From Oscillospiraceae bacterium (lineage in GTDB: Bacteria > Bacillota > Clostridia > Oscillospirales > CAG-272), in the NCBI GenBank assembly GCA_015063855.1, contig SVTI01000002.1, forward strand, positions 1-55,971: a stretch of 55,971 nt of DNA, in the 5' to 3' direction. Positions 10,437 through 28,469 of this stretch are shown piece by piece (position 1 is the stretch's first letter; the number at the start of each line of letters is the position of its first letter). The position numbers and the translations under genes are program-made. Below the pieces are notes generated by a model. It saw only the letters and a list, made by a program, of their open reading frames with translations. It had not been told where the DNA came from and did no database searches.

Positions 10437-10470
10437 TGAAACTTTTTTCTTCATATTCTGCACTTTAAAG
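10437..10470 (+). promoter_or_regulatory. ECF-type promoter candidate (TGAAAC-N17-GCACTTTA) upstream of the sigma gene
   Basis: TGAAAC at 10437-10442 and GCACTTTA at 10460-10467. A homologous motif lies upstream of the paralogous sigma gene at 21624-21655. Confidence 0.5.
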
Positions 10471-10488: not shown

Positions 10489-11025
10489 ATGACGGATAGG
10501 GAAAAAATATTCAATCAGATTTACGATAAGACCTACAGAGGAGCTCTTATATATGTTACTGCTAAATGCTCCCATGTTCAGGACATTGAGGACATAATGC
10601 AGGAGATATATACCGAGCTGTATTCTGTGATAACAAGGAAGGGCGGGGAATATATTGCTTTTCCCGAGGCGTTTGTCCTTAAAATAGCAAAGCGCAAGGT
10701 ATACCTGCATTACACCTTGAAGGAACGCATACGCGGGGTATCTCTTAACAGCGAGGATGTATACGAAAGAGAGATGATCGATTCTATTCCCGATGATTTT
10801 GATATAGAGGATGATATTTGTACCAAGGATATGCTTGACGAGATAGGGCGGTATATCCTCTCCCGTTCTGAGATAACCGCAAAAATATTTATGCTCTATT
10901 ATCTGCTTGATCTTAAGATATCGGAAATTGCCGAGCAATTATCGGTCAGCGAATCTTACGTTAAGAATAAGCTTTACCGTACCATAAAGGAGCTTAAAGC
11001 ACGTTACGGAGGTGACTATAAATGA
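10489..11025 (+). CDS. sigma-70-family (ECF-like) RNA polymerase sigma factor, copy 1
   Basis: About 178 aa. Region 2-like DIEDIMQEIYTELY and region 4 HTH ISEIAEQLSVSESYVKNKLYRTIKELK. Start taken at ATG 10489 (MTDREK), matching the paralog N-terminus. Confidence 0.8.
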   Translation: MTDREKIFNQIYDKTYRGALIYVTAKCSHVQDIEDIMQEIYTELYSVITRKGGEYIAFPEAFVLKIAKRKVYLHYTLKERIRGVSLNSEDVYEREMIDSIPDDFDIEDDICTKDMLDEIGRYILSRSEITAKIFMLYYLLDLKISEIAEQLSVSESYVKNKLYRTIKELKARYGGDYK

Positions 11026-12758
11026 AGGGAAAGGAGATCATAAAAAGAGCCTTGGAGGGCAGTATTCCCGACAAGGAATCGCTTCGTCAGGAGTGTCTGT
11101 CCCAAAGAAAGAGGGCTGTATCGGTTAAGAGAGTGATGATCGCCGCAGCCTGTATCCTTCTGCTCTGTACAACCTTTGTCTTGATACCCCTTTTGAAAAA
11201 AGATAATAATAAAAAAGGTTTTGACGGTAATGAAGATATCATTCTTCAAAGTGAAGAACTTGAGAGCATAAGTGAAGATATCACCCCCGACACGCAGGAC
11301 GAATACTATGACCCGGGTGCTATCGGCGGCGGTGAGTCCTCTATATGTCCCATTCACAGCATTGAATATCACGCTATCCCGGGACTCCTTATAGATTATG
11401 TGGATGAACAGGCTTACGAGGAATGGAAGTCACAGCTCCGTGATGAGGAGGGCTGGTATATAAGGGATGAAAACGGATGCTACCCCGGCTTTAATATAGT
11501 TGAGTTCATCAACTCCTTCAACATTCCCGATGAGCTGATAATCGAGTGCTATCCCGGATATTACAACAGCAGCTCCGCCTATTGGAACCTTGATCTGCTC
11601 CTTTCAAGAGATGCAGAGGCATACGAGATATTTGCAAGAAAAACGTCGCTTACAAAGGAGGAAAAAAGGTTATATGAAGACAGAGAAAGGGATGGATCCT
11701 TCAAGCGCAGAGTTCTGGATCTGCTGAAGGAGAAAACCGACGAAGGATCTGTTGCCTATTATAATAAAATAACCTGTAACGGTACGAGGTATCTCCTTGA
11801 AGAGTTTTCTATCCTTGATATGGTGGAGAATTCCTCGCTTACCAAGGAGGATATCGAGTCGGCCTGCGGTGTTGACCGACGTACAGGTGTTCAGTCTGTC
11901 AACTTTGTATATAGATATACCTATAATATAGATCTTCTTTTTGAGGAGAAGGCGGCGCTATATGCTGAAATCGAAAAGCTTGAAGATATTCCGTACGTAC
12001 CGCGTGCAGCACAGATAGATGAGCTTTTGCATATAGGATATAACGGAGAGCTTGCCGTAAAGGGAGAAGCAATTGAAACCGAATACGGAATTTATATTCC
12101 GGAGGGCTTACTGCCGCAGAGCGATGAGGATCTTCCGCTTGAAAAGGATATGATACTATACAAAGGCAGAATATATTGGTATACTGCGACCGTAACCGAG
12201 AGTGAAGAGCATATTATCGATCATGTGAAAAGCACAATCCCGGTCGGTCATACTCACGGCGATATTGAAAAGGGTAAAACGAATTGGGATACGTACAGAT
12301 ATTATCATTTTGCTTCGTCTTCGGTTGGCGACGTTTATCTTCTTGATGACTATGACTCAAGCTTCAGAATAATGTTCAATAATTATTTCGGAGATCCCAA
12401 TACAATGAAGATCTACGAGGCTAACAAAGGACTTGTTCTGGATAAAGGAAGCGACCTGTACGGTGAAAAGGGTTTGAATCTTCAAAAGAATTCCGTTTCA
12501 CTTTCAGTGGGAGAGAAGCTTGCAGATGATTCCATGAAAGAAAGGTTAATTTTAGAGCTTCAGGAGGGTGATTTTGTTCTTGATAACAGTGATGTGTCTG
12601 TTTATCGAAGTATTTCATTAAAGATAAATCTGGACGATCTCTCAAACGTAACTCTTACACTTTACGAAAACGGGTACGTTGAATATTCCGAGATATCGGG
12701 GTATGGGGTATATCTCGAAATTGATAATACTGAGTTTGTGCAAGATTTTTTTGAATGA
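11022..12758 (+). CDS. anti-sigma-like single-pass membrane protein carrying the shared uncharacterised ectodomain plus an extra C-terminal region of about 230 aa
   Basis: ATGA overlap with the sigma gene. Cytoplasmic tail of about 35 aa and a TM helix (VMIAAACILLLCTTFVLIPLL). The ectodomain has the IGGGESSICPIHSIEYHAIP, GCYP and FNIPDELIIECY motifs shared with the proteins at 19995, 21770 and 24407. Confidence 0.7.
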   Translation: MKGKEIIKRALEGSIPDKESLRQECLSQRKRAVSVKRVMIAAACILLLCTTFVLIPLLKKDNNKKGFDGNEDIILQSEELESISEDITPDTQDEYYDPGAIGGGESSICPIHSIEYHAIPGLLIDYVDEQAYEEWKSQLRDEEGWYIRDENGCYPGFNIVEFINSFNIPDELIIECYPGYYNSSSAYWNLDLLLSRDAEAYEIFARKTSLTKEEKRLYEDRERDGSFKRRVLDLLKEKTDEGSVAYYNKITCNGTRYLLEEFSILDMVENSSLTKEDIESACGVDRRTGVQSVNFVYRYTYNIDLLFEEKAALYAEIEKLEDIPYVPRAAQIDELLHIGYNGELAVKGEAIETEYGIYIPEGLLPQSDEDLPLEKDMILYKGRIYWYTATVTESEEHIIDHVKSTIPVGHTHGDIEKGKTNWDTYRYYHFASSSVGDVYLLDDYDSSFRIMFNNYFGDPNTMKIYEANKGLVLDKGSDLYGEKGLNLQKNSVSLSVGEKLADDSMKERLILELQEGDFVLDNSDVSVYRSISLKINLDDLSNVTLTLYENGYVEYSEISGYGVYLEIDNTEFVQDFFE

Positions 12759-12761
12759 AAC

Positions 12762-12791
12762 AAAGCCGTTACGCGATTACGTAACGGCTTT
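12762..12791 (+). terminator. rho-independent terminator
   Basis: Perfect 12-bp stem AAAGCCGTTACG / CGTAACGGCTTT with a 6-nt loop, followed by GTGTATATT. Confidence 0.6.
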
Positions 12792-12824
12792 GTGTATATT
12801 AAATCTCCCGAAGGGGATAACGAA

Positions 12825-12853
12825 AAATCAGTGAGTGTAATGCTCACTGATTT
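12825..12853 (-). terminator. hairpin overlapping the stop codon of the 12844..13791 gene
   Basis: AAATCAGTGAG / CTCACTGATTT 11-bp stem with a 7-nt loop. Confidence 0.5.
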
Positions 12854-13791
12854 TCATATAATCTGTTTACCATATACGTAATCGCAACACCTGTATCAAC
12901 ACCGAAGGCAGGGTCGATATCCTCAAGCATAAACTGCTTTAATGGGTGGAACATACGTGCGCTCTCCTCAACAACAACCTCGTCCTGACCTTCAAGCTTC
13001 ATCGTCAACTTGTCGCAGGTAAAGAGACAACGACCCTTTTCACCGCATATCTCTATCGTAAGAGGCCCTGAGGTGACAGAGGAGCATTCGTTAGTTGCTA
13101 TCAGTCCGTCATCGTATGCCATGACAGCAAGGGAGTTGTCCTCAACCATATCCTTGTTCTTTTCAAGAGAGGCCTTGTTTGTTGTAGAAACAGAGAGCAT
13201 TGACTTGTATCTGTTAGGTAGACCAAAGAGGTGATATATAACCGACAATCCGTGCACACCGTGGTCTATGACCGAGCCGCCGCCGGTAGTCTCTCTGTCG
13301 TAGAAGTGAGGGGGCAGCTCATCCTCGCTTGCCGCTGTGTGGGAATAACGGAATCTCACAGAGTTTACCTTGCCAAGCATACCCCGGTCAAGTATCTCAG
13401 CCTTTATTGTCTGGGTGAAGCCGTAGGCAATATTAGGAAAGCATATAGCAAAGAGAAGTCCGCTTTTCTTTACCGCCTCTGCAATCTCTTCGGCATCCTC
13501 GTCTGTTATGGCAAGTACCTTTTCGGTAAAGATATGCTTGCCTGCTTCGATCAGCTTAAGTATTACCTCCTTGTGTCTTGAGGTCTCGGTGCAGACGATA
13601 ACTCCCTCTACATCGGAGGAGAGCATCTCCTCAAGAGACGAATAAGCATATAAATTATGCTTATTACAGAAATCAGTCTGCCACTGACGGTTATCCTCCC
13701 AAACACCCGCTACCTCACCGTAGCGGCTTGCCATATCAACAAAATGTCCTGCGTGTACATGCCACACACCCCATAAAGCTATTTTTTTCAT
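12844..13791 (-). CDS. Gfo/Idh/MocA-family NAD(P)-dependent oxidoreductase
   Basis: N-terminal Rossmann-like region (MKKIALWGVWHVHAGHF) and an EKV motif (HIFTEKVLA). 4-nt overlap with the upstream gene. Confidence 0.8.
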   Translation of the reverse strand: MKKIALWGVWHVHAGHFVDMASRYGEVAGVWEDNRQWQTDFCNKHNLYAYSSLEEMLSSDVEGVIVCTETSRHKEVILKLIEAGKHIFTEKVLAITDEDAEEIAEAVKKSGLLFAICFPNIAYGFTQTIKAEILDRGMLGKVNSVRFRYSHTAASEDELPPHFYDRETTGGGSVIDHGVHGLSVIYHLFGLPNRYKSMLSVSTTNKASLEKNKDMVEDNSLAVMAYDDGLIATNECSSVTSGPLTIEICGEKGRCLFTCDKLTMKLEGQDEVVVEESARMFHPLKQFMLEDIDPAFGVDTGVAITYMVNRLYENQ

Positions 13792-14465
13792 GATAAAACC
13801 TCCACTGTATTTTTGATAGCAAGTGCCTTTTCAGGGTCTAATTTAATAAGGAGTTTGTCTCTGTCACATAATGCGGTATCACCGTCTACGGGATACATAT
13901 CATAGCTTTCATTACTTGCAGAGTCAATGCTGTCGCCAAAGATCGTTTTATAGGTGCAGAGGGCATTTGCATAGCTGCCGTAAGGCCCCGCGTGAGCACC
14001 GTCAAACCAATGTAACCTTATATCGGGATTTGACTTTAATATATTTTCGAACACGTGGCCTACCGGATTCATCGTAACGTCGTACAGTTCGCAGAGGGTA
14101 TAGTATATATCCTTCATTTTTTCAAATTCCTCGGGAATATCAAGCCTTGGCCAAGGGAGTGTCTGAATTACCTTTACCCCCTGTGCCCTTGCCATCTCGA
14201 TTATCTTTCCTGCGTCACGTATGGTCTCCTCCTTTGAGGGACAGGGCTCGTGAGCCGCCTGCTGCATGATTATATAATCATATCCACCCTGCACAAGGGC
14301 GAATCGAAGATCGGTATACTGAGCAAGATGCCACTCATAGGTAACACCGGGAGACGCTATCATTCCAACCTCCACATCCTTGCCGCACTCCTTACAGATC
14401 TTTTTGAAGAGAGCGGGCAGATCGTTATAATAGGTATGGCTGTTGCCTAAAAATAAAATTTTCAT
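13788..14465 (-). CDS. SGNH/GDSL-like hydrolase
   Basis: MKILFLGNSHTYYNDLP block I (GNSxT) and WFDGAHAGPYG near the C-terminus. Confidence 0.7.
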   Translation of the reverse strand: MKILFLGNSHTYYNDLPALFKKICKECGKDVEVGMIASPGVTYEWHLAQYTDLRFALVQGGYDYIIMQQAAHEPCPSKEETIRDAGKIIEMARAQGVKVIQTLPWPRLDIPEEFEKMKDIYYTLCELYDVTMNPVGHVFENILKSNPDIRLHWFDGAHAGPYGSYANALCTYKTIFGDSIDSASNESYDMYPVDGDTALCDRDKLLIKLDPEKALAIKNTVEVLS

Positions 14466-14495
14466 TAGAGTATCCTCGAAAGTATAGTTTTATCA

Positions 14496-14524
14496 ATTAT
14501 AACACAACAAGCACTTTTTTTCAA
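14496..14524 (-). promoter_or_regulatory. sigma-70-type promoter candidate for the SGNH/oxidoreductase pair
   Basis: On the minus strand: TTGAAA, a 17-nt spacer, then TGtTATAAT. Confidence 0.5.
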
Positions 14525-14536
14525 TAGAATATAAAA

Positions 14537-14560
14537 ACGGACGAGAAAAATCTCGTCCGT
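14537..14560 (-). terminator. rho-independent terminator of the PHP-domain gene
   Basis: ACGGACGAG / CTCGTCCGT stem followed on the minus strand by TTTTTATATT. Confidence 0.7.
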
Positions 14561-14578
14561 TTTGCGATTTTAGTTATC

Positions 14579-15688
14579 TTACTTGCGGAACATTTCGGAA
14601 TACTTAGCCTGTGCAGCCTCGATATTCTCTGTTGCTTCGTTTTCGTAATCAATAAGGGTGAATGCAGCCTTAATAAGGTGATCGAACTTGGGGTTCTCAT
14701 AAGCCTTACAGATGAAGGACTGTCTGGGAGTGTTGATGTCCTCACCGCTTATCTGGAAGAAGCCGTGCTCATCGCAGAGAGCCATGATCTTGTCAAGCTG
14801 CTCCATAGTGTTTCTGGTGGGCATGAAGGTAACTGCATCGAAGCCAAGCTCCTTGATGGTCTCGAAGAGAAGATCAATATAATCGTCCTCAAACTTCTGA
14901 GCCTTCTTATCGCCTGTTACAGAGTCTCCAACGTCACCGAGGTATGCGTAAGCCGCAACACCGCCGTTCTCGTGAACCATCTTGATGAACTCAGTTACAT
15001 CGGGAAGCTCATCTGTTGCATCAACGTAGAACTTCTCAACCATGTTACCCTTGAGAGCGCCGAGAATATCATATTCATAGAAATCGGGAGTTTCTCTGCC
15101 GTTTAAGATCTGTTCTCTTACCTTTGCGGAGAGAGCGATACCCATCTTGTTTTCGATGAAGTCAACTGCTTCCTCGGGAGTGGGATATGCAGAGGTAATC
15201 TTCTTAGCAAGAGCGAAGAGAATGTGACGCTCGGTTACTGTAGAAGTAGCAAGGGGTTTAACATCTGTCTCAAAGTCGAGAGTGATGCCGTAAGCCTTGG
15301 TGATCTCGGTGATGTTCTGGCACATCTTTGCATTACGGATATTTCTCTTCTCACGGTAGGGAGCAAAGAATGCATCTACCTTGTCAATGTTCTGATGAGG
15401 AATACCGTGCATAGCAACGTAAGCAACGGAGATCTGGTCAGGGTTGTTGATACGCTTGCCGCAAAGCTTGGTGTTAGCCATGTTTACACGGCACTCAACA
15501 CCAACTGTAACAGGCATGCCTATCTTCTTACCTGCCTCGATGAACTCCTTTGCGCCGCCTACAGAATCATGGTCCATGATACCTGCGGTCTTAAGTCCTG
15601 CCTTTGCCGCAGCCTCAACAGCGGTTGTAGGGGTGTAGGGAGAGAAGGAATATATAGTATGAATGTGATTGTTTACATAAGTAGCCAT
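14579..15688 (-). CDS. PHP (polymerase/histidinol phosphatase) domain metal-dependent phosphoesterase
   Basis: N-terminal HIHTIYSFSPY motif, then GIMDHDSV and AYAYLGDV. Confidence 0.7.
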   Translation of the reverse strand: MATYVNNHIHTIYSFSPYTPTTAVEAAAKAGLKTAGIMDHDSVGGAKEFIEAGKKIGMPVTVGVECRVNMANTKLCGKRINNPDQISVAYVAMHGIPHQNIDKVDAFFAPYREKRNIRNAKMCQNITEITKAYGITLDFETDVKPLATSTVTERHILFALAKKITSAYPTPEEAVDFIENKMGIALSAKVREQILNGRETPDFYEYDILGALKGNMVEKFYVDATDELPDVTEFIKMVHENGGVAAYAYLGDVGDSVTGDKKAQKFEDDYIDLLFETIKELGFDAVTFMPTRNTMEQLDKIMALCDEHGFFQISGEDINTPRQSFICKAYENPKFDHLIKAAFTLIDYENEATENIEAAQAKYSEMFRK

Positions 15689-15717
15689 TTTTTGACCTCA
15701 CAAAATTCAAGGAGGAT

Positions 15718-15739
15718 AAAAGCTGACAAGTCAGCTTTT
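15718..15739 (-). terminator. intercistronic hairpin or weak terminator
   Basis: AAAAGCTGAC / GTCAGCTTTT stem followed by TTTTAT on the minus strand. Confidence 0.45.
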
Positions 15740-15781
15740 ATCAACCTCATTTATTATTTATTCTTTATTATTTATTCTTTA

Positions 15782-17695
15782 TCAGTGGAGCATTACCTGT
15801 CCGCCTGTTACGGGGATAGCCTGTCCTGTTTCGTACTTCTGCTCTACGCAGTACATGATAGCTCTTGCTACGTCAACGGGGAGACAACCTCTGTTGAGGG
15901 GTACCTTAGACATATAGAACTTACGAACATCTTCAACAGTCTTAGCGCCGGGAACCTTACCTGCGTTGAGGTACTGAACGAAGAGACCCTTCTCGGGATC
16001 GGACCAGAGGGGACCGTCAAGGTAGTTACCGGGGCATACTGCGTTAACCTTGATGTTGTAGGGAGCAAGCTCCATAGCGAAGGAAGCGGTAAGACCGATA
16101 CCACCGAACTTAGAACCGGAGTATGCGAAGTTCTTGTTAGAGCCTTCAAGACCGGACTTGGAGTTGTTTTCAACGATATCCATCATGTAATCGGGCGCAA
16201 CGGAGTGCTGGATCTTCATAACTCTGGAAGCATACTTAGCGCAGAGGAAGTAACCTGTGTAGTTAACTGCAGTTACGAACTCGAGAGTACCCTTCTGCAT
16301 TTCCTCAAGGCTGCCTGCCTTTGCAATGCCTGCATTGTTTACGAATACGTCGAGACCGCCGTAGTTTACAACAACAGCATCAACCATTGCCTTAACGCTG
16401 TCCTCGTCGGTTACGTTAACTGCAACTGCCATAGCGTTGGGGAGCTTGTCAGCAGCAGCCTTAGCACCGTCATAGTTCATATCAGCGATAGCAACGTAAG
16501 CGCCGTTAGCAGCAAGCTCTTCTGCGATACCGAGACCGAAGCCCTGAGCACCGCCTGTTACGATGATAACCTTCTTGTCAAGACGCTTTGCACCGCCTGC
16601 AGCAAGGCTAACCTTTGCTCTGTAGCTTTCAACTTCCCAGTTGATGATGAATGTTTCAAGCCATTCGGGCATGGTGGAGATACCACCGAAGGACTGAGCG
16701 AATACACTGATCTTGATTGCATCCTGGAATACGATTTCTGCTGTCTTTGCATTCTTGTAAGTATCAGCCATAGCGAACATACCGAGACCAACGTAGTAAG
16801 CAACCTTGGGCTTGTAGCCGTTAGCTGCTACATAAGCGTCATACTTTTCCTTGATATCGTCACCGTCGGCAAGCACCAGGGGAGAAGCCTTGCAGTATAC
16901 GATATGGTCGGGTGTGAAGCTCTTGGTTGCGGGATCGTAATCAAGAACTGCCTTGGATGTGGAGAAGATAACACTTGCTGCCTCGCCGTCACCTGTGAGC
17001 ATACGAAGTACGGGAGCAACTGCGGTAACCTTATCTACATCATATTCAACGGGTGTGAAGTCGGGCTCTGCCTTGATCTCAGCCTTGATCTTACCCATAA
17101 CGTCTGCAACGATAACATCGAGCTCCTCGGTGGTGTCTGCTGCGAAGAATACGCCGTGGTTTTCAAGGAAGATGAGGTTGGGGCAAGCACCCTTTTCAGC
17201 CTTTGCTGCTTCAAGAGTCTTTAAGCAGAGCATAGCGAGGGTGTAGCCGGGCTTGGAGTTTGCAACCCAGATAGCATCGGGGAAGAGACGCTTGATGGTA
17301 GCCTCACCCGACTTAGAACAGGTGATACCGTTAACGGTTGCGGGATGGAGGTGGAGAACATACTTGTACTCCATAAGGTCATGAAGAACAGTCTCAACGC
17401 TGGGACGACGGGTTTCGCCCTTAACGCGTGCGTTCATCATGTCTTCAAGAACCTCAGCCTCACACTCAGCCTCCACATCGGAGTACTTCTTGGTTCTGAT
17501 CTCATTCAAGAGTGCGCGTTCCATTCTTACGAACTCATCAGGCTTGATGGTTGCAAGAGCTGTACCGGAACCCTTGATAAAGAGTAATTCGTCATTTTTA
17601 AAGGATGTATTGCCGCCGCCTGCAAGAACGAACTCGGGATTGGAGCCGTACTTGTTGGACATATCGGCTAATGCCTGTAACTGCTTGTCTAACAT
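15782..17695 (-). CDS. bifunctional class II aldolase/adducin-domain and short-chain dehydrogenase fusion (RhaEW/YuxG-like)
   Basis: 637 aa. The C-terminal half has SDR motifs (TGGAQGFG, NNAG, YSGSK). The N-terminal half is aldolase-like (GGGNTSFK, HLHP). Confidence 0.8.
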   Translation of the reverse strand: MLDKQLQALADMSNKYGSNPEFVLAGGGNTSFKNDELLFIKGSGTALATIKPDEFVRMERALLNEIRTKKYSDVEAECEAEVLEDMMNARVKGETRRPSVETVLHDLMEYKYVLHLHPATVNGITCSKSGEATIKRLFPDAIWVANSKPGYTLAMLCLKTLEAAKAEKGACPNLIFLENHGVFFAADTTEELDVIVADVMGKIKAEIKAEPDFTPVEYDVDKVTAVAPVLRMLTGDGEAASVIFSTSKAVLDYDPATKSFTPDHIVYCKASPLVLADGDDIKEKYDAYVAANGYKPKVAYYVGLGMFAMADTYKNAKTAEIVFQDAIKISVFAQSFGGISTMPEWLETFIINWEVESYRAKVSLAAGGAKRLDKKVIIVTGGAQGFGLGIAEELAANGAYVAIADMNYDGAKAAADKLPNAMAVAVNVTDEDSVKAMVDAVVVNYGGLDVFVNNAGIAKAGSLEEMQKGTLEFVTAVNYTGYFLCAKYASRVMKIQHSVAPDYMMDIVENNSKSGLEGSNKNFAYSGSKFGGIGLTASFAMELAPYNIKVNAVCPGNYLDGPLWSDPEKGLFVQYLNAGKVPGAKTVEDVRKFYMSKVPLNRGCLPVDVARAIMYCVEQKYETGQAIPVTGGQVMLH

Positions 17696-17849
17696 TGTAG
17701 TAATTTCCTTTCGGTTAAAGTAATTAGAAATTATGAGTCAGGATGAGGACTTATTATCCTCATCCTTGTTATTTTCATTTTATTTCGGGCATAAAACTGA
17801 AAGTATCAGTTTACTTTATACCCGAAGCGTCGCCGTGGGGCGGCCCCGC

Positions 17850-19133: not shown

Positions 19134-19191
19134 TCGGGCTTCCTTTCTGATTTGGATATATATATATTATTATTTATAAACATACATATTT

Positions 19192-19220
19192 ATTTTATCA
19201 TTATTATATTTAAGTGTCAA
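19192..19220 (-). promoter_or_regulatory. sigma-70-type promoter candidate for the dehydrogenase/aldolase cluster
   Basis: On the minus strand: TTGACA, a 17-nt spacer, then TGaTAAAAT, in an AT-rich 180-bp intergenic region. Confidence 0.5.
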
Positions 19221-19284
19221 TGGTAATAATCTGTTAATTGTTATTATTTTGTTATTTTTTAATGCATATTATTTAAATATTGAA

Positions 19285-19318
19285 AACAACCACCATTCTT
19301 AACAGAACGATGGTTGTT
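19285..19318 (-). terminator. terminator hairpin of the 19317..19547 gene
   Basis: AACAACCA(c)C / G(a)TGGTTGTT stem followed on the minus strand by TTTCAATATTT. It overlaps the stop codon. Confidence 0.5.
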
Positions 19319-19547
19319 AATCGATATTAAATATGTCATCGTAGGATATTTTTAATATCTCTTTAATTAAAATTATTTCATCCGGATATATGTGTCTTTG
19401 ACCAACTTCGATTTTTGCGAGTGCGCTTCTTGTAATATCGCAACCCATAGTTTGCATTTTTGATGAAAGCTGTTCTTGGGTTTTCCCGGAGGCTTCTCTT
19501 AATTTACGGATATTAGAGCCTATTTTATACTCGATTTTTCTATCCAT
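19317..19547 (-). CDS. XRE-family HTH regulator (76 aa)
   Basis: IRKLREASGKTQEQLSSKMQTMGCDITRSALAKIEVGQRHI, an HTH_3 signature. Confidence 0.8.
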   Translation of the reverse strand: MDRKIEYKIGSNIRKLREASGKTQEQLSSKMQTMGCDITRSALAKIEVGQRHIYPDEIILIKEILKISYDDIFNID

Positions 19548-19580
19548 AAAACATACACCTCCTTAAATTTACGATTTCTA

Positions 19581-19632
19581 TTGATTTTATTATAATATAA
19601 TGTTATAATAAAAATGCACCTGAATAAGTGCA
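19581..19632 (+). promoter_or_regulatory. promoter candidate plus a palindromic operator-like site in a divergent XRE intergenic region
   Basis: TTGATT (19581-19586), a 17-nt spacer, then TGtTATAAT (19604-19609). The inverted repeat TGCAC-N8-GTGCA lies at 19615-19632. Confidence 0.45.
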
Positions 19633-19656
19633 AATGCTCATTTTAAGGAGTTAATA

Positions 19657-19953
19657 ATGGATTTTACACAACAAATATTTTGTGATAATCTAAGATTTCT
19701 AAAAAAAACAGAAGGCTTGGATAATAGGGAAATGTCTGAAATTTTAGGAGTTTCGGAGTCGGTTATAGATTATTTTATTAATGGAATTCTTCCTTACGAT
19801 ACACCAATATCGGTGTTGTACAATATTCATTTGAATTTCGGGGTTCCGCCGGATGCTATGATAGGAGACAGCGAGGATATTATTAAATGTTATATTGAGC
19901 GTTTCAAAAACGAAATATCTTGCTTTAATGAACATATAATCCCCTCAGGATAG
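19657..19953 (+). CDS. XRE-like HTH protein (98 aa)
   Basis: LRFLKKTEGLDNREMSEILGVSESVIDYFINGILP HTH-like segment. AAGGAG RBS. Confidence 0.65.
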   Translation: MDFTQQIFCDNLRFLKKTEGLDNREMSEILGVSESVIDYFINGILPYDTPISVLYNIHLNFGVPPDAMIGDSEDIIKCYIERFKNEISCFNEHIIPSG

Positions 19954-19980
19954 TTTTGAAGCTGTTCTGAGGGGATTATA
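19935..19980. terminator. long hairpin between convergent genes
   Basis: TATAATCCCCTCAG / CTGAGGGGATTATA 14-bp stem with an 18-nt loop. Confidence 0.5.
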
Positions 19981-19994
19981 TTAATCATTTGTTG

Positions 19995-21071
19995 TTAATA
20001 AGCTACATGGTCATCGCTCTTTTCTCCTACATGGAGCAGAGCATCTGCCATTTTAACCCTTGATTCATAGTAAGGAATCTCAAGATTATCTATCATCTTT
20101 GTTAGGGTCTCTGTATCTCCAAAGAGAAGATCAAGGTTGTATTCGAAACGCTGAATATCACCGTTTTCGTCCTTCTGGTTTGTCGGATTCAGAACCTCTG
20201 CAAATTCATTTTTAGTGATTGATGTGTTAATGACAATATCAATTATAGATACTTCACACCATGGAATTTTTGTGCCGTTATCTGATATACGGTTATAGTA
20301 TTCTATAGTTTTTGCATCTGTTTTTGTTTTTAGTATATCAAACAATCGCTCTTTCAAGTCGCGTTCATTATAAAGCTTTGTTCTGTATATGTTGTATTCC
20401 GGATTACTTCTTGATTCACGGGATATTTTATCGAAACTTTCTGCATCTCTTGCCAAGAGGCTTTCCATATCCCAGTCGCAGTTGTAGAAATCATTTTGAT
20501 ATGCTTCTATTATTACTTCGTCGGGAATATTAAAGTGTTCAACACATTTTAGAATGTCACCCTCAGGATAACAACCGTTTTTATCGCGGACAAGCGCTGT
20601 AGGGTCTACCCACTTCCTGAATTCCTCCTGACCTATATAATTGGTTATTATGCTCGGAAATGCATGGTAATAGTATGTGTGGATCGGGCACAACACATCC
20701 CCGCCACCAATAGGATCAGGCTCTTCATTGTTTGTAGCCGGTACATCTGTTATTTCTTCTGTGATGTTAGGCTCTGTTATATTGTTTGCGGATTCGACTG
20801 CAGGTGCTTTGTTTTCCGTAACTGAGGCTTCTTCTGTTTCAATTATGCTTATGGGTGTGTGCGGAATTTCGGGATCTTTGTGTTGTGACGGCTTGATTAC
20901 AGAGAATGCCGTTAGCAGAGAAAGGGAAAGCATAGTGATAAGGGTAGCGGCAAGCAGAAGGTTTTTTATTCTGCTTTTTGCGGTATTGTGTGCTATACAT
21001 ACAGAATATATTTTTTCTTTGTCGGGAACAAGAGGAGTCAATGCCGAGGATAAAATTTCGTTATGTGTCAT
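19995..21071 (-). CDS. anti-sigma-like single-pass membrane protein with the shared ectodomain (copy 2)
   Basis: ATGA overlap with the sigma gene at 21068. TM helix LLLAATLITMLSLSLLTAFSVI. Motifs IGGGDVLCPIHTYYYHAFP, GCYP, FNIPDEVIIEAY and ADALLHVGEKSDDHVAY. Confidence 0.7.
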   Translation of the reverse strand: MTHNEILSSALTPLVPDKEKIYSVCIAHNTAKSRIKNLLLAATLITMLSLSLLTAFSVIKPSQHKDPEIPHTPISIIETEEASVTENKAPAVESANNITEPNITEEITDVPATNNEEPDPIGGGDVLCPIHTYYYHAFPSIITNYIGQEEFRKWVDPTALVRDKNGCYPEGDILKCVEHFNIPDEVIIEAYQNDFYNCDWDMESLLARDAESFDKISRESRSNPEYNIYRTKLYNERDLKERLFDILKTKTDAKTIEYYNRISDNGTKIPWCEVSIIDIVINTSITKNEFAEVLNPTNQKDENGDIQRFEYNLDLLFGDTETLTKMIDNLEIPYYESRVKMADALLHVGEKSDDHVAY

Positions 21072-21604
21072 TGTTCTTCACCTCTATAGAGATTTTTGAT
21101 TTCTTTTAACGTGCGGTATAGCTTGTTTTTAACATAGGACTCATTGACGCACAGAAGGAGTGCTATTCTTGGTATGGTGAGATTATATGAATAGTAGAGC
21201 AGGAAAATTTTTTGTACGATCAAGGGCTTAGACAGAACGAAGGCTCGTATGGAATCCAAGGCTTCCTTGGTACATATAGCATCCTCTATTATCAGATCAT
21301 CCGGGATAAAATTGATAATTTCCGCATCATTTTCATTAGAAGTATTCAAGGATATACCCTGTATTTTTTCTTTAAGGGAATAATGCTTGTATATTTTGCG
21401 ATTGCTTATCTTGATAACAAGGCGTTCAGGTGCTTGGACATAATCGATTCCCTTGCGTAATAAAGTTCTGTACAGCTCTGTATAGGTTTCTTGCAATATA
21501 TCTTCGATGTCATGAATGTTGGAGCACTTTGATGTTATATGTATAAGGGTGTTTTTGTAGGTCTTATCATAAATATCATTAAAATAATTTGTAATATCTG
21601 ACAT
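21068..21604 (-). CDS. sigma-70-family (ECF-like) sigma factor, copy 2 (paralog of 10489..11025)
   Basis: N-terminus MSDITNYFNDIYDKTYKN aligns with MTDREKIFNQIYDKTYRG. The region 4 motif ESYVKNKLYRT is shared. Confidence 0.8.
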   Translation of the reverse strand: MSDITNYFNDIYDKTYKNTLIHITSKCSNIHDIEDILQETYTELYRTLLRKGIDYVQAPERLVIKISNRKIYKHYSLKEKIQGISLNTSNENDAEIINFIPDDLIIEDAICTKEALDSIRAFVLSKPLIVQKIFLLYYSYNLTIPRIALLLCVNESYVKNKLYRTLKEIKNLYRGEEQ

Positions 21605-21623
21605 GATCTCACCGCCTTCGTTA

Positions 21624-21655
21624 TATAAAGTGCCCCAAAATATGAAAAAGTTTCA
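21624..21655 (-). promoter_or_regulatory. ECF-type promoter candidate (TGAAAC-N16-GCACTTTA) upstream of sigma copy 2
   Basis: The minus strand reads CTGAAACTTTTTCATATTTTGGGGCACTTTATATAACGAAGGCGGTGAGATCATG. It is collinear with 10437-10491. Confidence 0.5.
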
Positions 21656-21721
21656 GTATAAAATTAAAATTTGTCTATAAGTATATGATATATCCGATAT
21701 CTGCAATAATCAAGTGTTATT

Positions 21722-21756
21722 AAAAAAAAGCACCTGCAGGTGTTATCTGCAGGTGC
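21722..21756 (-). terminator. rho-independent terminator of the lipoprotein gene
   Basis: Perfect GCACCTGCAG / CTGCAGGTGC stem followed on the minus strand by an 8-nt T-run. Confidence 0.8.
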
Positions 21757-21769
21757 TTTGGGATTTCTA

Positions 21770-22708
21770 TTAATAAGCTACATGGTCATTGCTCTTTTCT
21801 CCTACATGGAGCAGAGCATCTGCCATTTTGACCCTTGATTCGTATTCGGGGATGTCGAGGTTATTAATTGTATTTGTCATAACGCTTGCATCTCCGAAGA
21901 GAAGATCAAGGTTGTATTCGAAGTAGGGGGTAACAAAATCTTCTCTGTTGTTAGACGTAGCATCTCCAAGTGCGTTTATAAAGTCGTCTTTGGTTAGCGA
22001 AGTGTTTGATATCATATCATATAACGTTATTTCAGAACAAGGAAAATAAGATCCGTTGTTGGTTATAGTATTATAATAATCAACGGTTTTTTTATCTGTT
22101 TTTGTTTTCATGAAATCAAATAATCGAAATTTTAATGATTGTTCTGATGATAATTTTGCAGAAGAATTGGTGGTAATGGAGTTTCTTGCATATCGTTCAA
22201 ATGCTTCGTGATCTCTTTCAAGCAGTGCCTTTATATCCCAGTCCCGATTATAATAATCATTCTGATATGCTTCGATTATTATTTCGTCGGGAACATCAAA
22301 ATATTCTATACAAAGAAGGATATTTCCGTTTGGCCAACAGCCTTCTTCATTGGTTGTAGAATGAGCTTCATTCGACCATTTACGAAAATGTTCTTCTCCT
22401 ATATAATCTTTGATTTCTTTAGGATAACAGTGGTATCCAAAGTTATGAACTTCACATATGCCCGTACCGCCTATTGGCTTAGGATCATTGTTAGTGTCAG
22501 TAGTACCGGGAGTGGGTATCACTTCTTCGGTAATATCAATTTCCGTTTCTGAATCGGGCAAATCGGTGTCTGCGATGTATGAAGTATCCGAACTTTCGGG
22601 TATGTTTACATATTCGTCAGTTTCTTTTTGTGAGCTTTCAGGCTTTGAACAGGATATAAAAGTCGTTAAAACTGAACAAACCAAAAATATTATCAAAGTA
22701 TTTTTCAT
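21770..22708 (-). CDS. lipoprotein consisting only of the shared ectodomain (copy 3, no sigma partner)
   Basis: Signal peptide with a lipobox (TTFISC). The domain is identical over about 180 aa to the ectodomain of 24407..25633. The AGGAGG RBS lies inside the last codons of the upstream M23 gene. Confidence 0.75.
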   Translation of the reverse strand: MKNTLIIFLVCSVLTTFISCSKPESSQKETDEYVNIPESSDTSYIADTDLPDSETEIDITEEVIPTPGTTDTNNDPKPIGGTGICEVHNFGYHCYPKEIKDYIGEEHFRKWSNEAHSTTNEEGCWPNGNILLCIEYFDVPDEIIIEAYQNDYYNRDWDIKALLERDHEAFERYARNSITTNSSAKLSSEQSLKFRLFDFMKTKTDKKTVDYYNTITNNGSYFPCSEITLYDMISNTSLTKDDFINALGDATSNNREDFVTPYFEYNLDLLFGDASVMTNTINNLDIPEYESRVKMADALLHVGEKSNDHVAY

Positions 22709-22710
22709 AA

Positions 22711-24150
22711 TTAACCTCCTACGGGATTTCCGTTGTAATCATAGTCGTGATATGGGGATTGGTATCTTATAAAAGCCAAAGGATCCATATATTCTCTGCT
22801 TGACAGACCATAATCGTCTGTGTTCGATATCGAGAAATGTAAATGATATCCATAGTTAGCGCCGGTATTTCCGACGGTTCCAATTCGCTGTTCTTGCTGC
22901 ACATCAACACCGACATTCACCAATATTGAATTTAAATGCTGATAAATCATAAAGTAGAATTTATCCTTACTATTGTCTTCAGGATCATCATGATAACACG
23001 TCTCTATTTGTATTAAATTCCCACAGGAGCCATATTCATCCGCCATTTTGACTTTTCCTGATGAAACACTATATACCGAAGTCCCTATTGTTCTTGCGAT
23101 ATCTATACCTTGATGATATTCAAGCTGGCTTGCGGTACCGTACCTCCAACCAAAATTTCGGCATTGATTCAAATAATTACGGGTGTTTGTCCATTCCGTC
23201 ATATTGTTGAATCCTGCAATCGGTAAGCTATACCCACCGCCGGTGCCAAGAGCCATTTCGATCGTATTAATGAAGTTGTTACGAGTAAGTGTAGTATTGG
23301 TCAGGCCTTGTCTGTAATTTATGGCAAAGGCATTAGCGGCAAATGCCAGATTGCTTGATGTAGACAAACAAGCTATACCGTAAGTGTTTGTTTTTATAGG
23401 CTGTTCGGGATATTTATCAGCCGGAGCATTTGTGTTTTCGAAATAAATATACACGGTCGCATTTGCAATAGGCGCTCCGCTTGTTGAACGTACATAGAAC
23501 AATATTTCATTTCCGGGGTACTTGTTTATAGCATACATTTTTGAAAGCATTGTTGCACCGCTTGATCTGTCAATGGTACCTGTCGGATCGAAGCTGCCAT
23601 TAGGTTTACCGGTGATTATTTCGGCCTTTGCCAAGGTCATTACAGCAGTCTGAGACCATGAGGCTATTGAAGACTGATCGGTAAAGCTAATATTGGGCTT
23701 GGTTACCGGTATCGTGGCATTGGTTACGTTTAACGCACGGTATACCAAGGTGGCGAATTCCTGACGCGTTATCACCGTGTCGGGACTGAAGAGACCGTTG
23801 CCGGTTCCGTTGGTTATGTTATTATCATATGCCCATTTAATGCTACCCGAGTAATCGGATGAATAGGGAACGTCGGAAAACGGGGTGTCTGCATATTTCG
23901 GAACATTGATGTCAAGCATTCTTCTTATTCCGTCAACCGCTATATCTCTTCTCAATCCGCCGTAAGGGTAAAAGAGGTTGGATTGAGAGTAAAATGCTCC
24001 GTGGTAATAACAAAAGCAAATACTGTCCTCTGCCCAAAAGTTTTCGGGCAGGTCGGTGAATCTGCTGTCTGCGCTTGAGCTGAAGGTCAATACCGCTGAG
24101 AATAAAGCGGTAAAAACAATAACTGCAAATAATATTTTAACTTTCTTCAT
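22711..24150 (-). CDS. secreted SLH-domain M23 (LytM-type) metallopeptidase
   Basis: Signal peptide. SLH repeats (FTDLPENFWAEDS..., FSDVPYSSDYSGSIKWAYDNNITNGTGNGLFSP...). M23 catalytic motifs HQGIDIA (HxxxD) and GYHLHFS (HxH). Confidence 0.85.
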   Translation of the reverse strand: MKKVKILFAVIVFTALFSAVLTFSSSADSRFTDLPENFWAEDSICFCYYHGAFYSQSNLFYPYGGLRRDIAVDGIRRMLDINVPKYADTPFSDVPYSSDYSGSIKWAYDNNITNGTGNGLFSPDTVITRQEFATLVYRALNVTNATIPVTKPNISFTDQSSIASWSQTAVMTLAKAEIITGKPNGSFDPTGTIDRSSGATMLSKMYAINKYPGNEILFYVRSTSGAPIANATVYIYFENTNAPADKYPEQPIKTNTYGIACLSTSSNLAFAANAFAINYRQGLTNTTLTRNNFINTIEMALGTGGGYSLPIAGFNNMTEWTNTRNYLNQCRNFGWRYGTASQLEYHQGIDIARTIGTSVYSVSSGKVKMADEYGSCGNLIQIETCYHDDPEDNSKDKFYFMIYQHLNSILVNVGVDVQQEQRIGTVGNTGANYGYHLHFSISNTDDYGLSSREYMDPLAFIRYQSPYHDYDYNGNPVGG

Positions 24151-24303
24151 TTTCTTCTCCTTTCGAGGTTGTTAAAGTTAATGGTTCTTAAACTTAACGG
24201 ATGAATATACTTCGGAAGGTTTATTGATTTGAAGCTGAAGCTCAAATCGATATTATATTTTCATAACGATTTCCCCCTTTAAAGAGGTTGAATTATTTAC
24301 CTC

Positions 24304-24345
24304 TTCATTACAGTAATGTCACCCAAAACACAAAATAGCAGGTTT
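24304..24345 (-). promoter_or_regulatory. conserved 43-nt motif upstream of the SLH-M23 gene, shared with the sigma copy 3 upstream region
   Basis: 36 of 43 nt are identical to 26231-26273 in the same orientation. It sits just downstream (minus sense) of terminator 24367-24397. Confidence 0.5.
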
Positions 24346-24366
24346 TATATGAAAAAAAAGTAAAAA

Positions 24367-24397
24367 AATCTCATCCCGATTTTTTTGGGATGAGATT
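24367..24397 (-). terminator. rho-independent terminator of the sigma/anti-sigma copy 3 operon
   Basis: AATCTCATCCC / GGGATGAGATT 11-bp stem followed on the minus strand by TTTTTTTAC. Confidence 0.75.
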
Positions 24398-24406
24398 TTA
24401 ATTTAC

Positions 24407-25633
24407 TTACTCCGCTATATGCAATAAGGCATCTGCCATTTTAACCCTTGATTCATAGTAAGGAATCTCAAGATTATCTATCATCTTTGTTAGGGTCTCT
24501 GTATCTCCAAAGAGAAGATCAAGGTTGTATTCGAAGTAGGGGGTAACAAAATCTTCTCTGTTGTTAGACGTAGCATCTCCAAGTGCGTTTATAAAGTCGT
24601 CTTTGGTTAGCGAAGTGTTTGATATCATATCATATAACGTTATTTCAGAACAAGGAAAATAAGATCCGTTGTTGGTTATAGTATTATAATAATCAACGGT
24701 TTTTTTATCTGTTTTTGTTTTCATGAAATCAAATAATCGAAATTTTAATGATTGTTCTGATGATAATTTTGCAGAAGAATTGGTGGTAATGGAGTTTCTT
24801 GCATATCGTTCAAATGCTTCGTGATCTCTTTCAAGCAGTGCCTTTATATCCCAGTCCCGATTATAATAATCATTCTGATATGCTTCGATTATTATTTCGT
24901 CGGGAACATCAAAATATTCTATACAAAGAAGGATATTTCCGTTTGGCCAACAGCCTTCTTCATTGGTTGTAGAATGAGCTTCATTCGACCATTTACGAAA
25001 ATGTTCTTCTCCTATATAATCTTTGATTTCTTTAGGATAACAGTGGTATCCGAAGTTATGAACCTCACAGATACCGGTTCCGCCTATTGGCTTAGGATCA
25101 TCATTGCTTGTAACCGGTACATCGGTTATTGGTTCTGTAATATACGGTTCTGTTATAATGTTTTCTTCTGTTATAATACTATCTGTTTCGTTATTTAATG
25201 TATTGGAGTCGGTACTTGGAGCGTCGGTATCGGGAGACGGTTCCTTTTTTGTAATATCAATTGGGTCTATCGGAATATCTGTATTTTTATCCGAGGTATT
25301 TAACACCGAAAGGGTAGATACCGTTAATGCACTCATCATTACAAGAACTGCGGCTATAAGTAATACACGTTTAAGGGTAATTGACTTTGATTTTTTATTA
25401 TTTATTATATTTCTTGCATTTTTCTCCGCCTCCTTATCAAGTGTGGTTATGTCTTCACCATTTAATATGAGAAGTGCTTCTACCGCTTCGTCTATAAGCT
25501 CGTAATTTCTGTATTCATAGGGGAGAGACTCTTCTTTACTTAATATCTCTTCTATCGCCTCGGTAAGCTCGGCATCGTTACCTACAGGCTTTTTTTCTTC
25601 ATATTCACTGAGCTTCTGCTCAAGTTCGCTCAT
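24407..25633 (-). CDS. anti-sigma-like single-pass membrane protein with the shared ectodomain (copy 4, mosaic)
   Basis: Acidic cytoplasmic N-terminus of about 90 aa, unrelated to copies 1 and 2. TM helix VLLIAAVLVMMSALTVSTLSVL. The ectodomain is identical to the lipoprotein 21770..22708. The C-terminal tail is identical to 19995..21071. Confidence 0.75.
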   Translation of the reverse strand: MSELEQKLSEYEEKKPVGNDAELTEAIEEILSKEESLPYEYRNYELIDEAVEALLILNGEDITTLDKEAEKNARNIINNKKSKSITLKRVLLIAAVLVMMSALTVSTLSVLNTSDKNTDIPIDPIDITKKEPSPDTDAPSTDSNTLNNETDSIITEENIITEPYITEPITDVPVTSNDDPKPIGGTGICEVHNFGYHCYPKEIKDYIGEEHFRKWSNEAHSTTNEEGCWPNGNILLCIEYFDVPDEIIIEAYQNDYYNRDWDIKALLERDHEAFERYARNSITTNSSAKLSSEQSLKFRLFDFMKTKTDKKTVDYYNTITNNGSYFPCSEITLYDMISNTSLTKDDFINALGDATSNNREDFVTPYFEYNLDLLFGDTETLTKMIDNLEIPYYESRVKMADALLHIAE

Positions 25634-25650
25634 TTTTGAATGCTCCTTAT

Positions 25651-26160
25651 TTAATCGTTTATGATACTCCTGACGGCATTTTCGACCTTTGCTAATCTTA
25701 GCCGCAGTGTGGAATAGGGGATATGTTTTATATCCGCTATTTCCTTTAGTGTTTTTTCTTCTATATATCTAAGGACAAAAAGCTCTTTTAGATCTTTCGT
25801 AAGCATATCGGCTATTTCATCCATTCGTTTTTCAATATTCTTTACGAAATACTCATCAACACTACTTGCCTCGGATAATTCACCTCTTTCCTTTGTTTCC
25901 TCAAGGGAAAGGGTCCGGGCGTAATAACGGTTGTGTTTTCGCAGAGAATTTTTTATGCACATATCCGCCACGCGGTACAGATAGGCTCTCAGACTCTCAC
26001 CCCGCTCAACCTTGTCCCATTTTTCGTATAGAATACGGAAAATATCGTTTTGAGTTTCTTCGGTCAATTCCTTGTTACAGCGGAGCTTGAGATAACAGTA
26101 TCTGTACAGCGGCTTTGAATACTGCATGACTATCGCTTCATATTCTTTGATGTCAAACAT
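25651..26160 (-). CDS. ECF-type sigma-70-family sigma factor, copy 3 (a different lineage from copies 1 and 2)
   Basis: Region 2 (YRYCYLKL..., DIFRILYEKW) and region 4 HTH (LKEIADIKHIPYSTLRLRLAKV). AGAGGT RBS. Confidence 0.85.
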   Translation of the reverse strand: MFDIKEYEAIVMQYSKPLYRYCYLKLRCNKELTEETQNDIFRILYEKWDKVERGESLRAYLYRVADMCIKNSLRKHNRYYARTLSLEETKERGELSEASSVDEYFVKNIEKRMDEIADMLTKDLKELFVLRYIEEKTLKEIADIKHIPYSTLRLRLAKVENAVRSIIND

Positions 26161-26230
26161 TTCTTTACCTCTGTATTATGGCCATAATAACAGTTTACCT
26201 CGAAAGAAGGAGTATGTCAATCCCCTTGCC

Positions 26231-26274
26231 TTCATAACAGTAATGTCGCGGAAAACGTAAAATAGCAGCTTTTT
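26231..26274 (-). promoter_or_regulatory. conserved 43-nt motif upstream of sigma copy 3 (see 24304-24345)
   Basis: TTCATAACAGTAATGTCGCGGAAAACGTAAAATAGCAGCTTTT on plus, about 70 nt upstream of the sigma start codon. Confidence 0.5.
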
Positions 26275-26314: not shown

Positions 26315-26343
26315 TAATCTATAAAAGCTGTTTGGAGGCAAAA

Positions 26344-28467: not shown

Positions 28468-28469
28468 TA

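Follow-up and report, generated by a model that had tools for sequence, protein, structure and literature searches.

Background

Pairs made up of a sigma factor with extracytoplasmic function (ECF) and its anti-sigma factor, such as SigV/RsiV and SigW/RsiW of Bacillus, consist of a small sigma factor that comprises regions 2 and 4 only and a co-transcribed, often translationally coupled partner with a single transmembrane (TM) segment, whose N-terminus lies in the cytoplasm and whose C-terminal domain is extracytoplasmic. The general features of such pairs are described in PMC7826278. The signal to which an ECF switch responds is set by the anti-sigma ectodomain. The majority of these ectodomains are uncharacterised, and unannotated ones are common. 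The SigI/RsgI pairs of cellulolytic clostridia, several of which occur per genome, are built from a sigma factor with a SigI-specific C-terminal domain and a single-pass partner with an RsgI_N head, whose extracellular sensing modules (carbohydrate-binding modules and others) vary by paralog (PMC6582324). In the BlaR1/MecR1-BlaI systems (Peptidase_M56), a penicillin-binding domain occupies the extracellular sensor position, whereas RseB (with RseA), IseA and the PliC/MliC-type lipoproteins are envelope proteins that modulate an anti-sigma ectodomain or bind a muralytic enzyme. This work describes an unannotated extracytoplasmic domain of about 240 aa that is shared by four proteins encoded on a contig of an uncultured Oscillospiraceae bacterium of the gut or rumen (GTDB lineage Bacteria; Bacillota; Clostridia; Oscillospirales; CAG-272; assembly GCA_015063855.1, contig SVTI01000002.1), analysed over its positions 1 to 55,971 (55,971 nucleotides, hereafter the window). 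Three of these proteins (copies 1, 2 and 4) are anti-sigma-like membrane proteins encoded after ECF-type sigma genes (sigma-1, sigma-2 and sigma-3, respectively), and one (copy 3) is a free lipoprotein encoded next to an SLH-anchored M23 peptidase (Table 1).

The locus resembles the described ECF pairs in its small sigma factors with regions 2 and 4 only, in the topology and gene order of their partners, in the putatively autoregulatory TGAAAC −35 promoters of sigma-1 and sigma-2 and in the existence of relatives with a zf-HC2 head. It differs from them in that the ectodomain is an unannotated, predicted all-alpha fold without a match in the PDB, in that the cytoplasmic heads of copies 1, 2 and 4, two of them just ~35 aa long, match no anti-sigma model, and in that the same ectodomain is also present as a free lipoprotein in the putative regulon. 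A likeness to SigI/RsgI was pointed out in a first-pass annotation of this DNA, made from the sequence alone. The multi-paralog logic, with several single-pass pairs bearing extracellular sensing modules in one Clostridia genome, stands as an analogy; however, the sigma factors of the window match ECF region-4 models and not the SigI-specific C-terminal domain, and a Pfam/NCBIfam scan of the four window proteins gave no match to RsgI_N (the beta-barrel head). Moreover, one sensor family here spans different sigma lineages, whereas RsgI paralogs vary their sensor modules. Two relatives, P0092 and P0101, hold the domain in the extracellular sensor position equivalent to that of BlaR1, but the window proteins lack an M56 domain and their sensor is not a penicillin-binding domain. 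The free lipoprotein may, by analogy, act as RseB, IseA or PliC/MliC do, and it is encoded together with a peptidoglycan peptidase; it nevertheless has no sequence or fold similarity to these proteins, the sole link to IseA being the fusion protein P0101.

What is new is the family as such, the fact that anti-sigma factors, BlaR1-type transducers and lipoproteins all make use of it, and a sensor-plus-output cassette with an M23 peptidase. Beyond the first-pass annotation, we report the linkage to the SLH-M23 gene, a common upstream element, an internal duplication within the domain and gene conversion between copies 3 and 4.

Results

The shared domain and its conserved residues

The products of the four genes align over ~240 aa. 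A profile hidden Markov model (HMM) of the family matches them with E-values of 1e-77 to 1e-87, and a family-profile search of the window retrieved exactly these four copies and no fifth, in agreement with the common ectodomain proposed at first pass. Copy 1 is 35-37% identical to the other copies over the whole alignment, and 57 invariant columns of the four-copy alignment persist after the addition of one outside homolog. In copy 1, the domain covers aa 95-345 (11304-12056) and is followed by an extra C-terminal region (aa ~346-578); this region of ~230 aa, which had been noticed before, is kept in the orthologs P0011, P0014 and P0155.

The landmark motifs listed in the first-pass annotation (IGG..C..H...YH, GC.P, F.IPDE.IIE.Y, LL.RD.E, YYN.I..NG, YN.DLLF and LLH) are all found in the four copies. 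Most of them are subfamily-specific, as among 112 members of the wider family a conservation of ≥ 90% is reached solely by C109, H112, H117, W135, C153 and F166 (numbered as in copy 1). Invariant throughout a 28-sequence alignment of the domain are two Cys (C109 and C153), one Trp, one Phe and one Tyr; H117 is substituted in several members. The copy-1 ortholog P0155 lacks C153.

Database searches and predicted structure

Scans of the four copies against Pfam, NCBIfam, PADLOC and PHROGs gave nothing significant for the shared domain, and a Pfam scan of 112 full-length relatives found no family covering it. A PDB sequence-profile search with the domain reached a best E of 1.8. An AlphaFold2 model of the domain, built with the 28-sequence alignment (pLDDT 89.4, pTM 0.85) and superseding an earlier model from a 5-sequence alignment (pLDDT 65.7), displays ~14 helices and essentially no strands. 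When this model was compared with Foldseek, the best hits had an E of 1.9 and a TM ≤ 0.18 in the PDB and an E of 1.9 in BFVD. Neither the profile nor the structure searches thus yielded a confident match to a known family, and the earlier statement that the domain can be assigned to no named family is borne out across all these resources. Literature searches returned nothing on the shared domain or on the sigma/M23/lipoprotein cassette described below.

A comparison of the two halves of the domain by hhalign shows them to be homologous (probability 91.8%, E 7e-7). The aligned repeat reads LIxYVG..F..W...GC...NI..FI..F.IP.E.I...Y...YY..WD.DLL in the N-half and L..L....YYN.IT.NG...SI.E.V.N..IT.E.LE......F.YN.DLLF in the C-half. 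According to the model and this alignment, the domain is all-alpha and arose from an internal duplication of a helical unit of ~75 aa, which explains the extra copies of the N-terminal half in several relatives.

Sigma factors and their membrane partners

Judged by profile matches, the three small open reading frames (ORFs) upstream of copies 1, 2 and 4 are ECF-type sigma factors. Sigma-1 matches Sigma70_r4_2 (E 1.6e-9, 37.7 bits) and TIGR02937 (46.3 bits against a cutoff of 42.9), and sigma-3 matches Sigma70_r2 (2.8e-7, 30.7 bits), Sigma70_r4_2 (1e-7, 31.9 bits) and TIGR02937 (53.7 bits against the same cutoff of 42.9). The sigma-70 model matches of sigma-2 are weak (33.3 bits, under the curated cutoffs); it is 55% identical to sigma-1 from M5 of sigma-1 onward. 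No BLAST-detectable similarity exists between sigma-3 and sigma-1, consistent with the two sigma lineages distinguished at first pass; sigma-3 is taken to represent a lineage unrelated to that of sigma-1 and sigma-2. The sigma-1 ORF opens at GTG 10477, and ATG 10489, preceded by AAGGTGGTGA, is the likely start.

Copies 1, 2 and 4 directly follow these genes and possess a single hydrophobic segment each, starting at residues 32-37 in copies 1 and 2 and at residue 84 in copy 4. As the same domain occurs on lipoproteins, the anti-sigma-like ectodomain must be outside. The earlier account of the coupling and the tails also stood: sigma-1/copy 1 and sigma-2/copy 2 overlap by 4 nt (ATGA, 11022-11025 and 21068-21071), the gap between sigma-3 and copy 4 is 17 nt, and the cytoplasmic tails are of two kinds, one of ~35 aa in copy 1 (motif EIIkrAle..PDKE) and ~36 aa in copy 2, the other acidic and ~85 aa long in copy 4 (previously estimated at ~90). 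In copy 2, a linker rich in Thr, Glu, Asn and Pro separates the TM segment from the domain.

The linkage to sigma genes extends beyond the window. All nine members with a cytoplasmic tail and TM segment for which the context was read are encoded immediately behind a co-oriented ECF sigma gene; these comprise the three of the window and P0011 (loci L002-L005), P0014 (L006, L007), P0009 (L009), P0012 (L013), P0016 (L014) and P0018 (L015). The six outside members are 24-51% identical to the copy-1 ortholog P0005, and four of them overlap the sigma gene by 4 nt. For the sigma-1/copy-1 pair, both the ATGA overlap and the synteny are kept in L002-L007.

At least five types of cytoplasmic head occur in the family: a short EI(I/L)..A...PDKE.IR head (copies 1 and 2, P0011, P0012 and P0014), always found with the sigma-1/2 lineage; the acidic head of ~85 aa (copy 4 and P0009); ELL..IG.ID.KYI.EA (~18 members); YEEMAETVFRRIDEY (~7 members); and a canonical zf-HC2 (ZAS) anti-sigma head (P0078, 35.3 bits, and P0086, 29.5 bits, against a Pfam cutoff of 22.2). 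Together with two BlaR1/M56 fusions, these heads confirm and broaden the first-pass proposal of a single sensor domain grafted onto signalling modules of different kinds.

In the Ruminococcaceae loci that encode P0011 (L002-L005), the sigma gene is called as two overlapping ORFs (5464-5787 and 5780-6004, 107 and 74 aa) in three of four independent assemblies, and in L004 just the 107-aa ORF is called. Here an intact anti-sigma gene may stand beside a sigma gene that is frameshifted or decaying.

Family size, hosts and architectures

Word-indexed homolog searches returned just 4, 6 and 13 proteins. It was an exhaustive profile search of 1.84 billion representatives that revealed the family, with 216 clusters at E ≤ 1e-3, of which 101 reach E ≤ 1e-10 and 15 reach E ≤ 1e-30. 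Almost all members are unnamed metagenomic proteins, and the few named ones stem from metagenome-assembled genomes of Ruminococcaceae, Oscillospiraceae or Clostridia; for ten members, a look-up of their clusters yielded no informative names. A genome-collection scan with a close alignment gave a single locus (L008), and a metagenome scan with the domain alignment found nothing.

Architectures were classed by N-terminal features for the best 153 of the 216 members. Lipoproteins, called by motif judgement, account for 76 of these 153 and are the commonest form, followed by proteins with a cytoplasmic tail and one TM segment (40), fragmentary or unclear sequences (23) and proteins with a signal peptide only (14). 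Some single proteins carry tandem copies of the domain. Copy 3 has the signal peptide and lipobox (FISC) expected of the free lipoprotein it was taken for, with the start MKNTLIIFLVCSVLTTFIS-C20. In the five lineages read, the lipoprotein gene has no adjacent sigma gene, although in one of them, L009, a sigma/anti-sigma pair is found just upstream of the M23-lipoprotein unit. P0092 and P0101 are BlaR1-type M56 fusions with the domain in the extracellular part. P0101 (2370 aa; L017, 4001-11113) is encoded after a BlaI-type repressor gene, holds the domain at aa 1826-2031 and ends in an IseA-like endopeptidase-inhibitor domain, the single such fusion among 112 proteins.

The occurrence of the domain behind zf-HC2 anti-sigma heads and on BlaR1 (M56) transducers indicates that it is a modular extracytoplasmic sensor or binding domain, of a family from uncultured Clostridia. 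It is interchangeable in three architectures: behind the various heads of ECF anti-sigma factors, in BlaR1/BlaI transducers and on free lipoproteins.

A cassette with an SLH-anchored M23 peptidase

The gene upstream of copy 3 encodes a protein with Pfam matches to SLH (6e-25) and Peptidase_M23 (2.5e-21) in which the HQGID and HLH motifs are both present. The lipoprotein gene begins 3 nt after it. Terminator-like hairpins separate this pair from the copy-4 transcription unit on one side and from the sigma-2 unit on the other. Sigma-3, anti-sigma copy 4, SLH-M23 and lipoprotein copy 3 constitute a four-gene cassette that is present in a second lineage, since this gene order recurs in locus L009 of another organism: a sigma fragment, the copy-4-like anti-sigma protein P0009, SLH-M23 and a family lipoprotein. 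In L008 (Oscillospiraceae SIG630), L010 and L001, SLH-M23 is likewise followed by the lipoprotein, without an adjacent sigma gene; two family lipoprotein genes follow in L008 and L010, and one is seen on the truncated L001 contig. Every full-length M23 ortholog found (L009, L008/L010), as well as the 5'-truncated one of L001, is followed by a family lipoprotein. The two genes are 2-16 nt apart in the window, in L009 and in L008/L010, and 20 nt apart in L001. A second metagenome scan, with an M23 alignment, returned generic SLH proteins alone and no new cassette.

Other lipoprotein genes of the family have other neighbours. The one of L011 stands alone after an EF-G gene, the one of L016 follows a PF00144 (Beta-lactamase family) gene near a SpoIIP gene, and the one of L018 is divergent from a His_kinase/AraC two-component pair. 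The PF00144 product may have a penicillin-binding protein or DD-peptidase role.

Divergently from sigma-3, the window (26305-33172, + strand) encodes an LRR_5-SLH-phosphodiesterase and a NAGPA-SLH protein (both within 26305-31094) and a third SLH-matching protein. In L015 (752-3235), a NAGPA-SLH gene lies just upstream of the sigma gene that is paired with the distant member P0018. The neighbourhoods in the window and L015 are rich in SLH-anchored envelope enzymes.

Upstream elements

The pattern TGAAAC-N17-GCACTTTA matches the window at just two sites, one upstream of sigma-1 and the other upstream of sigma-2, versus 0.02 expected by chance. The orthologous sigma genes of L006, L002 and L013 have TGAAAC-N17-CAC(T/A)T upstream as well, which brings the total to five loci. 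A search for further promoters of this type in the window gave solely these two sites with the strict pattern and none with a degenerate consensus pattern. TGAAAC is a typical ECF −35 motif, so the sigma-1 and sigma-2 modules are probably autoregulated from these candidate promoters.

The window contains exactly two copies of a 32-nt element, CTGCTATTTTnnGTTTTnnnnGACATTACTGT, one preceding sigma-3 and one preceding the M23 gene, versus 0 expected by chance; the latter copy lies just after the hairpin that trails copy 4. It is kept upstream of the M23 gene in L009 (1631-1663). A simple tandem duplication as the source of the pair was rejected, since the two elements are 1927 nt apart versus 2613 nt for the coding repeat and the element is conserved in L009; the pair is hence not a by-product of one collinear duplication. 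The element would mark the sigma-3 and M23-lipoprotein operons as co-regulated, either as a candidate shared promoter for sigma-3 or as a candidate operator for another factor.

Between the element and the M23 gene, a leader block (AAGGGGGAAnnCGTT ATG AAA ATA TAA) is kept in the window, L009 (~1690-1720), L008 (~4285-4315) and L010 (~5475-5505). It can be read as a Shine-Dalgarno-like run with a mini-ORF of three codons (MKI), or as containing a TATAAT −10 hexamer (24252-24257). An Rfam scan of the M23 5' region and the leader block gave no riboswitch or leader match.

Gene conversion among the copies

The ectodomain DNA of copies 4 and 3 (24429-25101 and 21816-22488) is 95.9% identical over 675 nt, and the 3' end of copy 4 (24415-24535) is 95% identical to that of copy 2 (20027-20147) over the last ~120 nt. 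This near-identity points to recent gene conversion and to copy 4 being a mosaic, so that copies 3 and 4 should not be regarded as independent. In the L009 cassette, the anti-sigma and lipoprotein ectodomains are just 38% identical, which makes the homogenisation of copies 3 and 4 lineage-specific.

Discussion

We consider it fairly probable that the shared domain is an unannotated modular sensor used both on ECF anti-sigma factors and on a lipoprotein, and that the M23-lipoprotein pair is an output of sigma-3. In the window, the domain would take the form of three single-pass anti-sigma ectodomains, each co-transcribed with its ECF sigma factor in two paralogous modules of the sigma-1/2 type and one unrelated sigma-3 module, and of one tethered lipoprotein. 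The family, its architectures, the links to sigma and M23 genes and the repeated element are observed; sigma binding, a signal, regulon membership and a role for the lipoprotein we infer as follows. According to the general ECF paradigm, the short cytoplasmic head would keep the sigma factor inactive until a signal received by the ectodomain frees it. Freed sigma-1 and sigma-2 would then drive their own TGAAAC-type promoters. For sigma-3, the same 32-nt element before its own gene and before the M23 gene makes the M23-lipoprotein pair its most likely output, and the lipoprotein, which shows the ligand-binding domain of the sensor, could provide feedback or be protective in a circuit for cell-wall remodelling or stress.

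Several observations weigh against this proposal. The M23 linkage comes from just three independent lineages, the lipoproteins of L011, L016 and L018 have no M23 neighbour, and the M23 gene of L008/L010 has neither the 32-nt element nor an adjacent sigma gene. The element is unlike a textbook ECF promoter and could be the operator of another regulator, and at the sigma-3 gene a sigma-70-like match (TTGACA-17-TAAACT) lies downstream of it. As for the anti-sigma function, the heads of copies 1, 2 and 4 have no Pfam/NCBIfam anti-sigma match at E ≤ 1, and the ~35 cytoplasmic residues of copies 1 and 2 are fewer than a classical anti-sigma domain has. The length and anonymity of the tails could also mean that the membrane proteins are sigma-regulated envelope proteins that merely share the sigma operons. 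We regard this as highly improbable, because their place directly after the sigma gene, with the 4-nt overlap, is kept in members just 24-36% identical to copy 1, the EII..A...PDKE.IR tail motif co-occurs with the sigma-1/2 lineage, and homologous ectodomains are found on bona fide zf-HC2 anti-sigma heads.

Other readings concern what the domain binds or does. It might specifically bind peptidoglycan hydrolases as inhibitor, immunity factor or receptor. At the membrane surface, the lipoprotein would then restrain either the adjacent SLH-M23 peptidase or an M23-type lysin of foreign origin, and the anti-sigma ectodomain would bind the same enzyme, so that free hydrolase releases sigma-3 in a manner comparable to RsiV and lysozyme. 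The tight adjacency of the M23 and lipoprotein genes in three lineages, the ~96% identity of the sensor and lipoprotein ectodomains in the window, the IseA-like domain of the BlaR1-type P0101 and the PF00144 and SpoIIP neighbours of the L016 lipoprotein all fit such a function, yet we judge it unlikely: sensor and lipoprotein of L009 share only 38% identity, modules 1 and 2, L011 and L018 have no hydrolase neighbour, and just a single protein of the 112 shows the fusion to IseA. A stronger version is unlikely as well, in which the domain is a new class of hydrolase receptor or inhibitor, the sigma-3 circuit senses the cell's own autolysin or a competitor's M23 lysin and makes the lipoprotein as decoy or immunity factor, and the paralogous modules and BlaR1-type fusions sense other envelope-active enzymes. 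The divergence of the L009 pair equally speaks against the lipoprotein being a homotypic, RseB-like partner that is induced by sigma-3 and shields the sensor from site-1 cleavage as a ligand-independent negative feedback, as does the lack of a sigma/anti-sigma gene near most lipoprotein members. Although copies 3 and 4 have almost the same ectodomain, kept so by gene conversion, their genes share one cassette with a common upstream element, and tandem domains in single proteins show that a side-by-side placement is possible, we give this possibility little credence. Finally, the first-pass annotation suggested metal or redox chemistry, and a metal-dependent or redox-active enzyme or sensor could be read from the Cys-x2-His...His...Cys pattern formed by C109, H112, H117 and C153, all within the ≥ 90% conserved set and both Cys invariant in the 28-sequence alignment. 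This reading is improbable in our view: it rests on two Cys, which could just form an extracytoplasmic disulfide, and on one or two His, H117 being substituted in several members and C153 missing from P0155; the Foldseek searches revealed no similarity to an enzyme fold, and the architecture of repeated helical units is more like that of a binding scaffold.

The preferred reading, a modular sensor with sigma-3 output, makes the cassette a concrete and testable circuit in which a sensor is linked to a cell-wall hydrolase and the output contains a further copy of the sensor domain. Were the hydrolase or its product the ligand, the locus would offer a compact model of how uncultured Clostridia achieve autolysin homeostasis or defend themselves against lysins, and would also justify a new Pfam entry.

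Layout of the locus and minor observations

Table 1. Position of the sigma modules, the M23-lipoprotein unit and their candidate regulatory elements in the window (position 1 is its first nucleotide)
Feature	Position	Strand	Description
Candidate autoregulatory ECF promoter, sigma-1	10437..10467	+	TGAAAC-N17-GCACTTTA
ECF sigma factor 1	10489..11025	+	Sigma70_r4_2 and TIGR02937 matches
Anti-sigma-like protein copy 1, 578 aa	11022..12758	+	Tail, one TM segment, shared domain, C-terminal extension
Anti-sigma-like protein copy 2, 358 aa	19995..21071	-	One TM segment; shared domain aa ~117-358
ECF sigma factor 2, sigma-1 paralog	21068..21604	-	55% identity to sigma-1
Candidate autoregulatory ECF promoter, sigma-2	21626..21655	-	TGAAAC...GCACTTTA
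Terminator-like hairpin and T-run, 3' of the lipoprotein gene	21727..21759	-	
Free lipoprotein copy 3, 312 aa	21770..22708	-	Lipobox; acidic linker; shared domain aa ~73-312
SLH-anchored M23 (LytM-type) peptidase, 479 aa	22711..24150	-	Pfam SLH and Peptidase_M23
Conserved M23-leader block	24253..24280	-	AAGGGGGAAnnCGTT ATG AAA ATA TAA
32-nt element, upstream of the M23 gene	24310..24341	-	CTGCTATTTTnnGTTTTnnnnGACATTACTGT
Terminator-like hairpin and T-run, directly 3' of the copy-4 gene	24365..24399	-	
Anti-sigma-like protein copy 4, 408 aa	24407..25633	-	One TM segment; linker; shared domain aa ~177-408
ECF sigma factor 3	25651..26160	-	Sigma70_r2, Sigma70_r4_2 and TIGR02937 matches
Sigma-70-like promoter match, upstream of sigma-3	26192..26220	-	TTGACA-17-TAAACT; consensus match alone
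Second 32-nt element, upstream of sigma-3	26237..26268	-	CTGCTATTTTnnGTTTTnnnnGACATTACTGT

Upstream of module 1, the window encodes two secreted or lipoprotein-like ORFs of 509 and 390 aa (6799-8328 and 8408-9580, + strand), for which a Pfam scan gave no match. A short Ser/Thr protein kinase (9623-10387, − strand), consisting of the kinase domain only (234-254 aa), lies divergently beside sigma-1, and this neighbourhood is kept in L006 (2759-3463) and L007 (2657-3361); the kinase might give module 1 a second regulatory layer. A second M23-domain protein (50112-51356, + strand) does not adjoin any member of the domain family. At 55200-55314 (+ strand), an Rfam match to STnc490, a Salmonella Hfq-binding small RNA family, scores 57.8 bits versus a gathering score of 56; as such a match is unexpected in a Clostridia-like contig, it is probably a different structured element.

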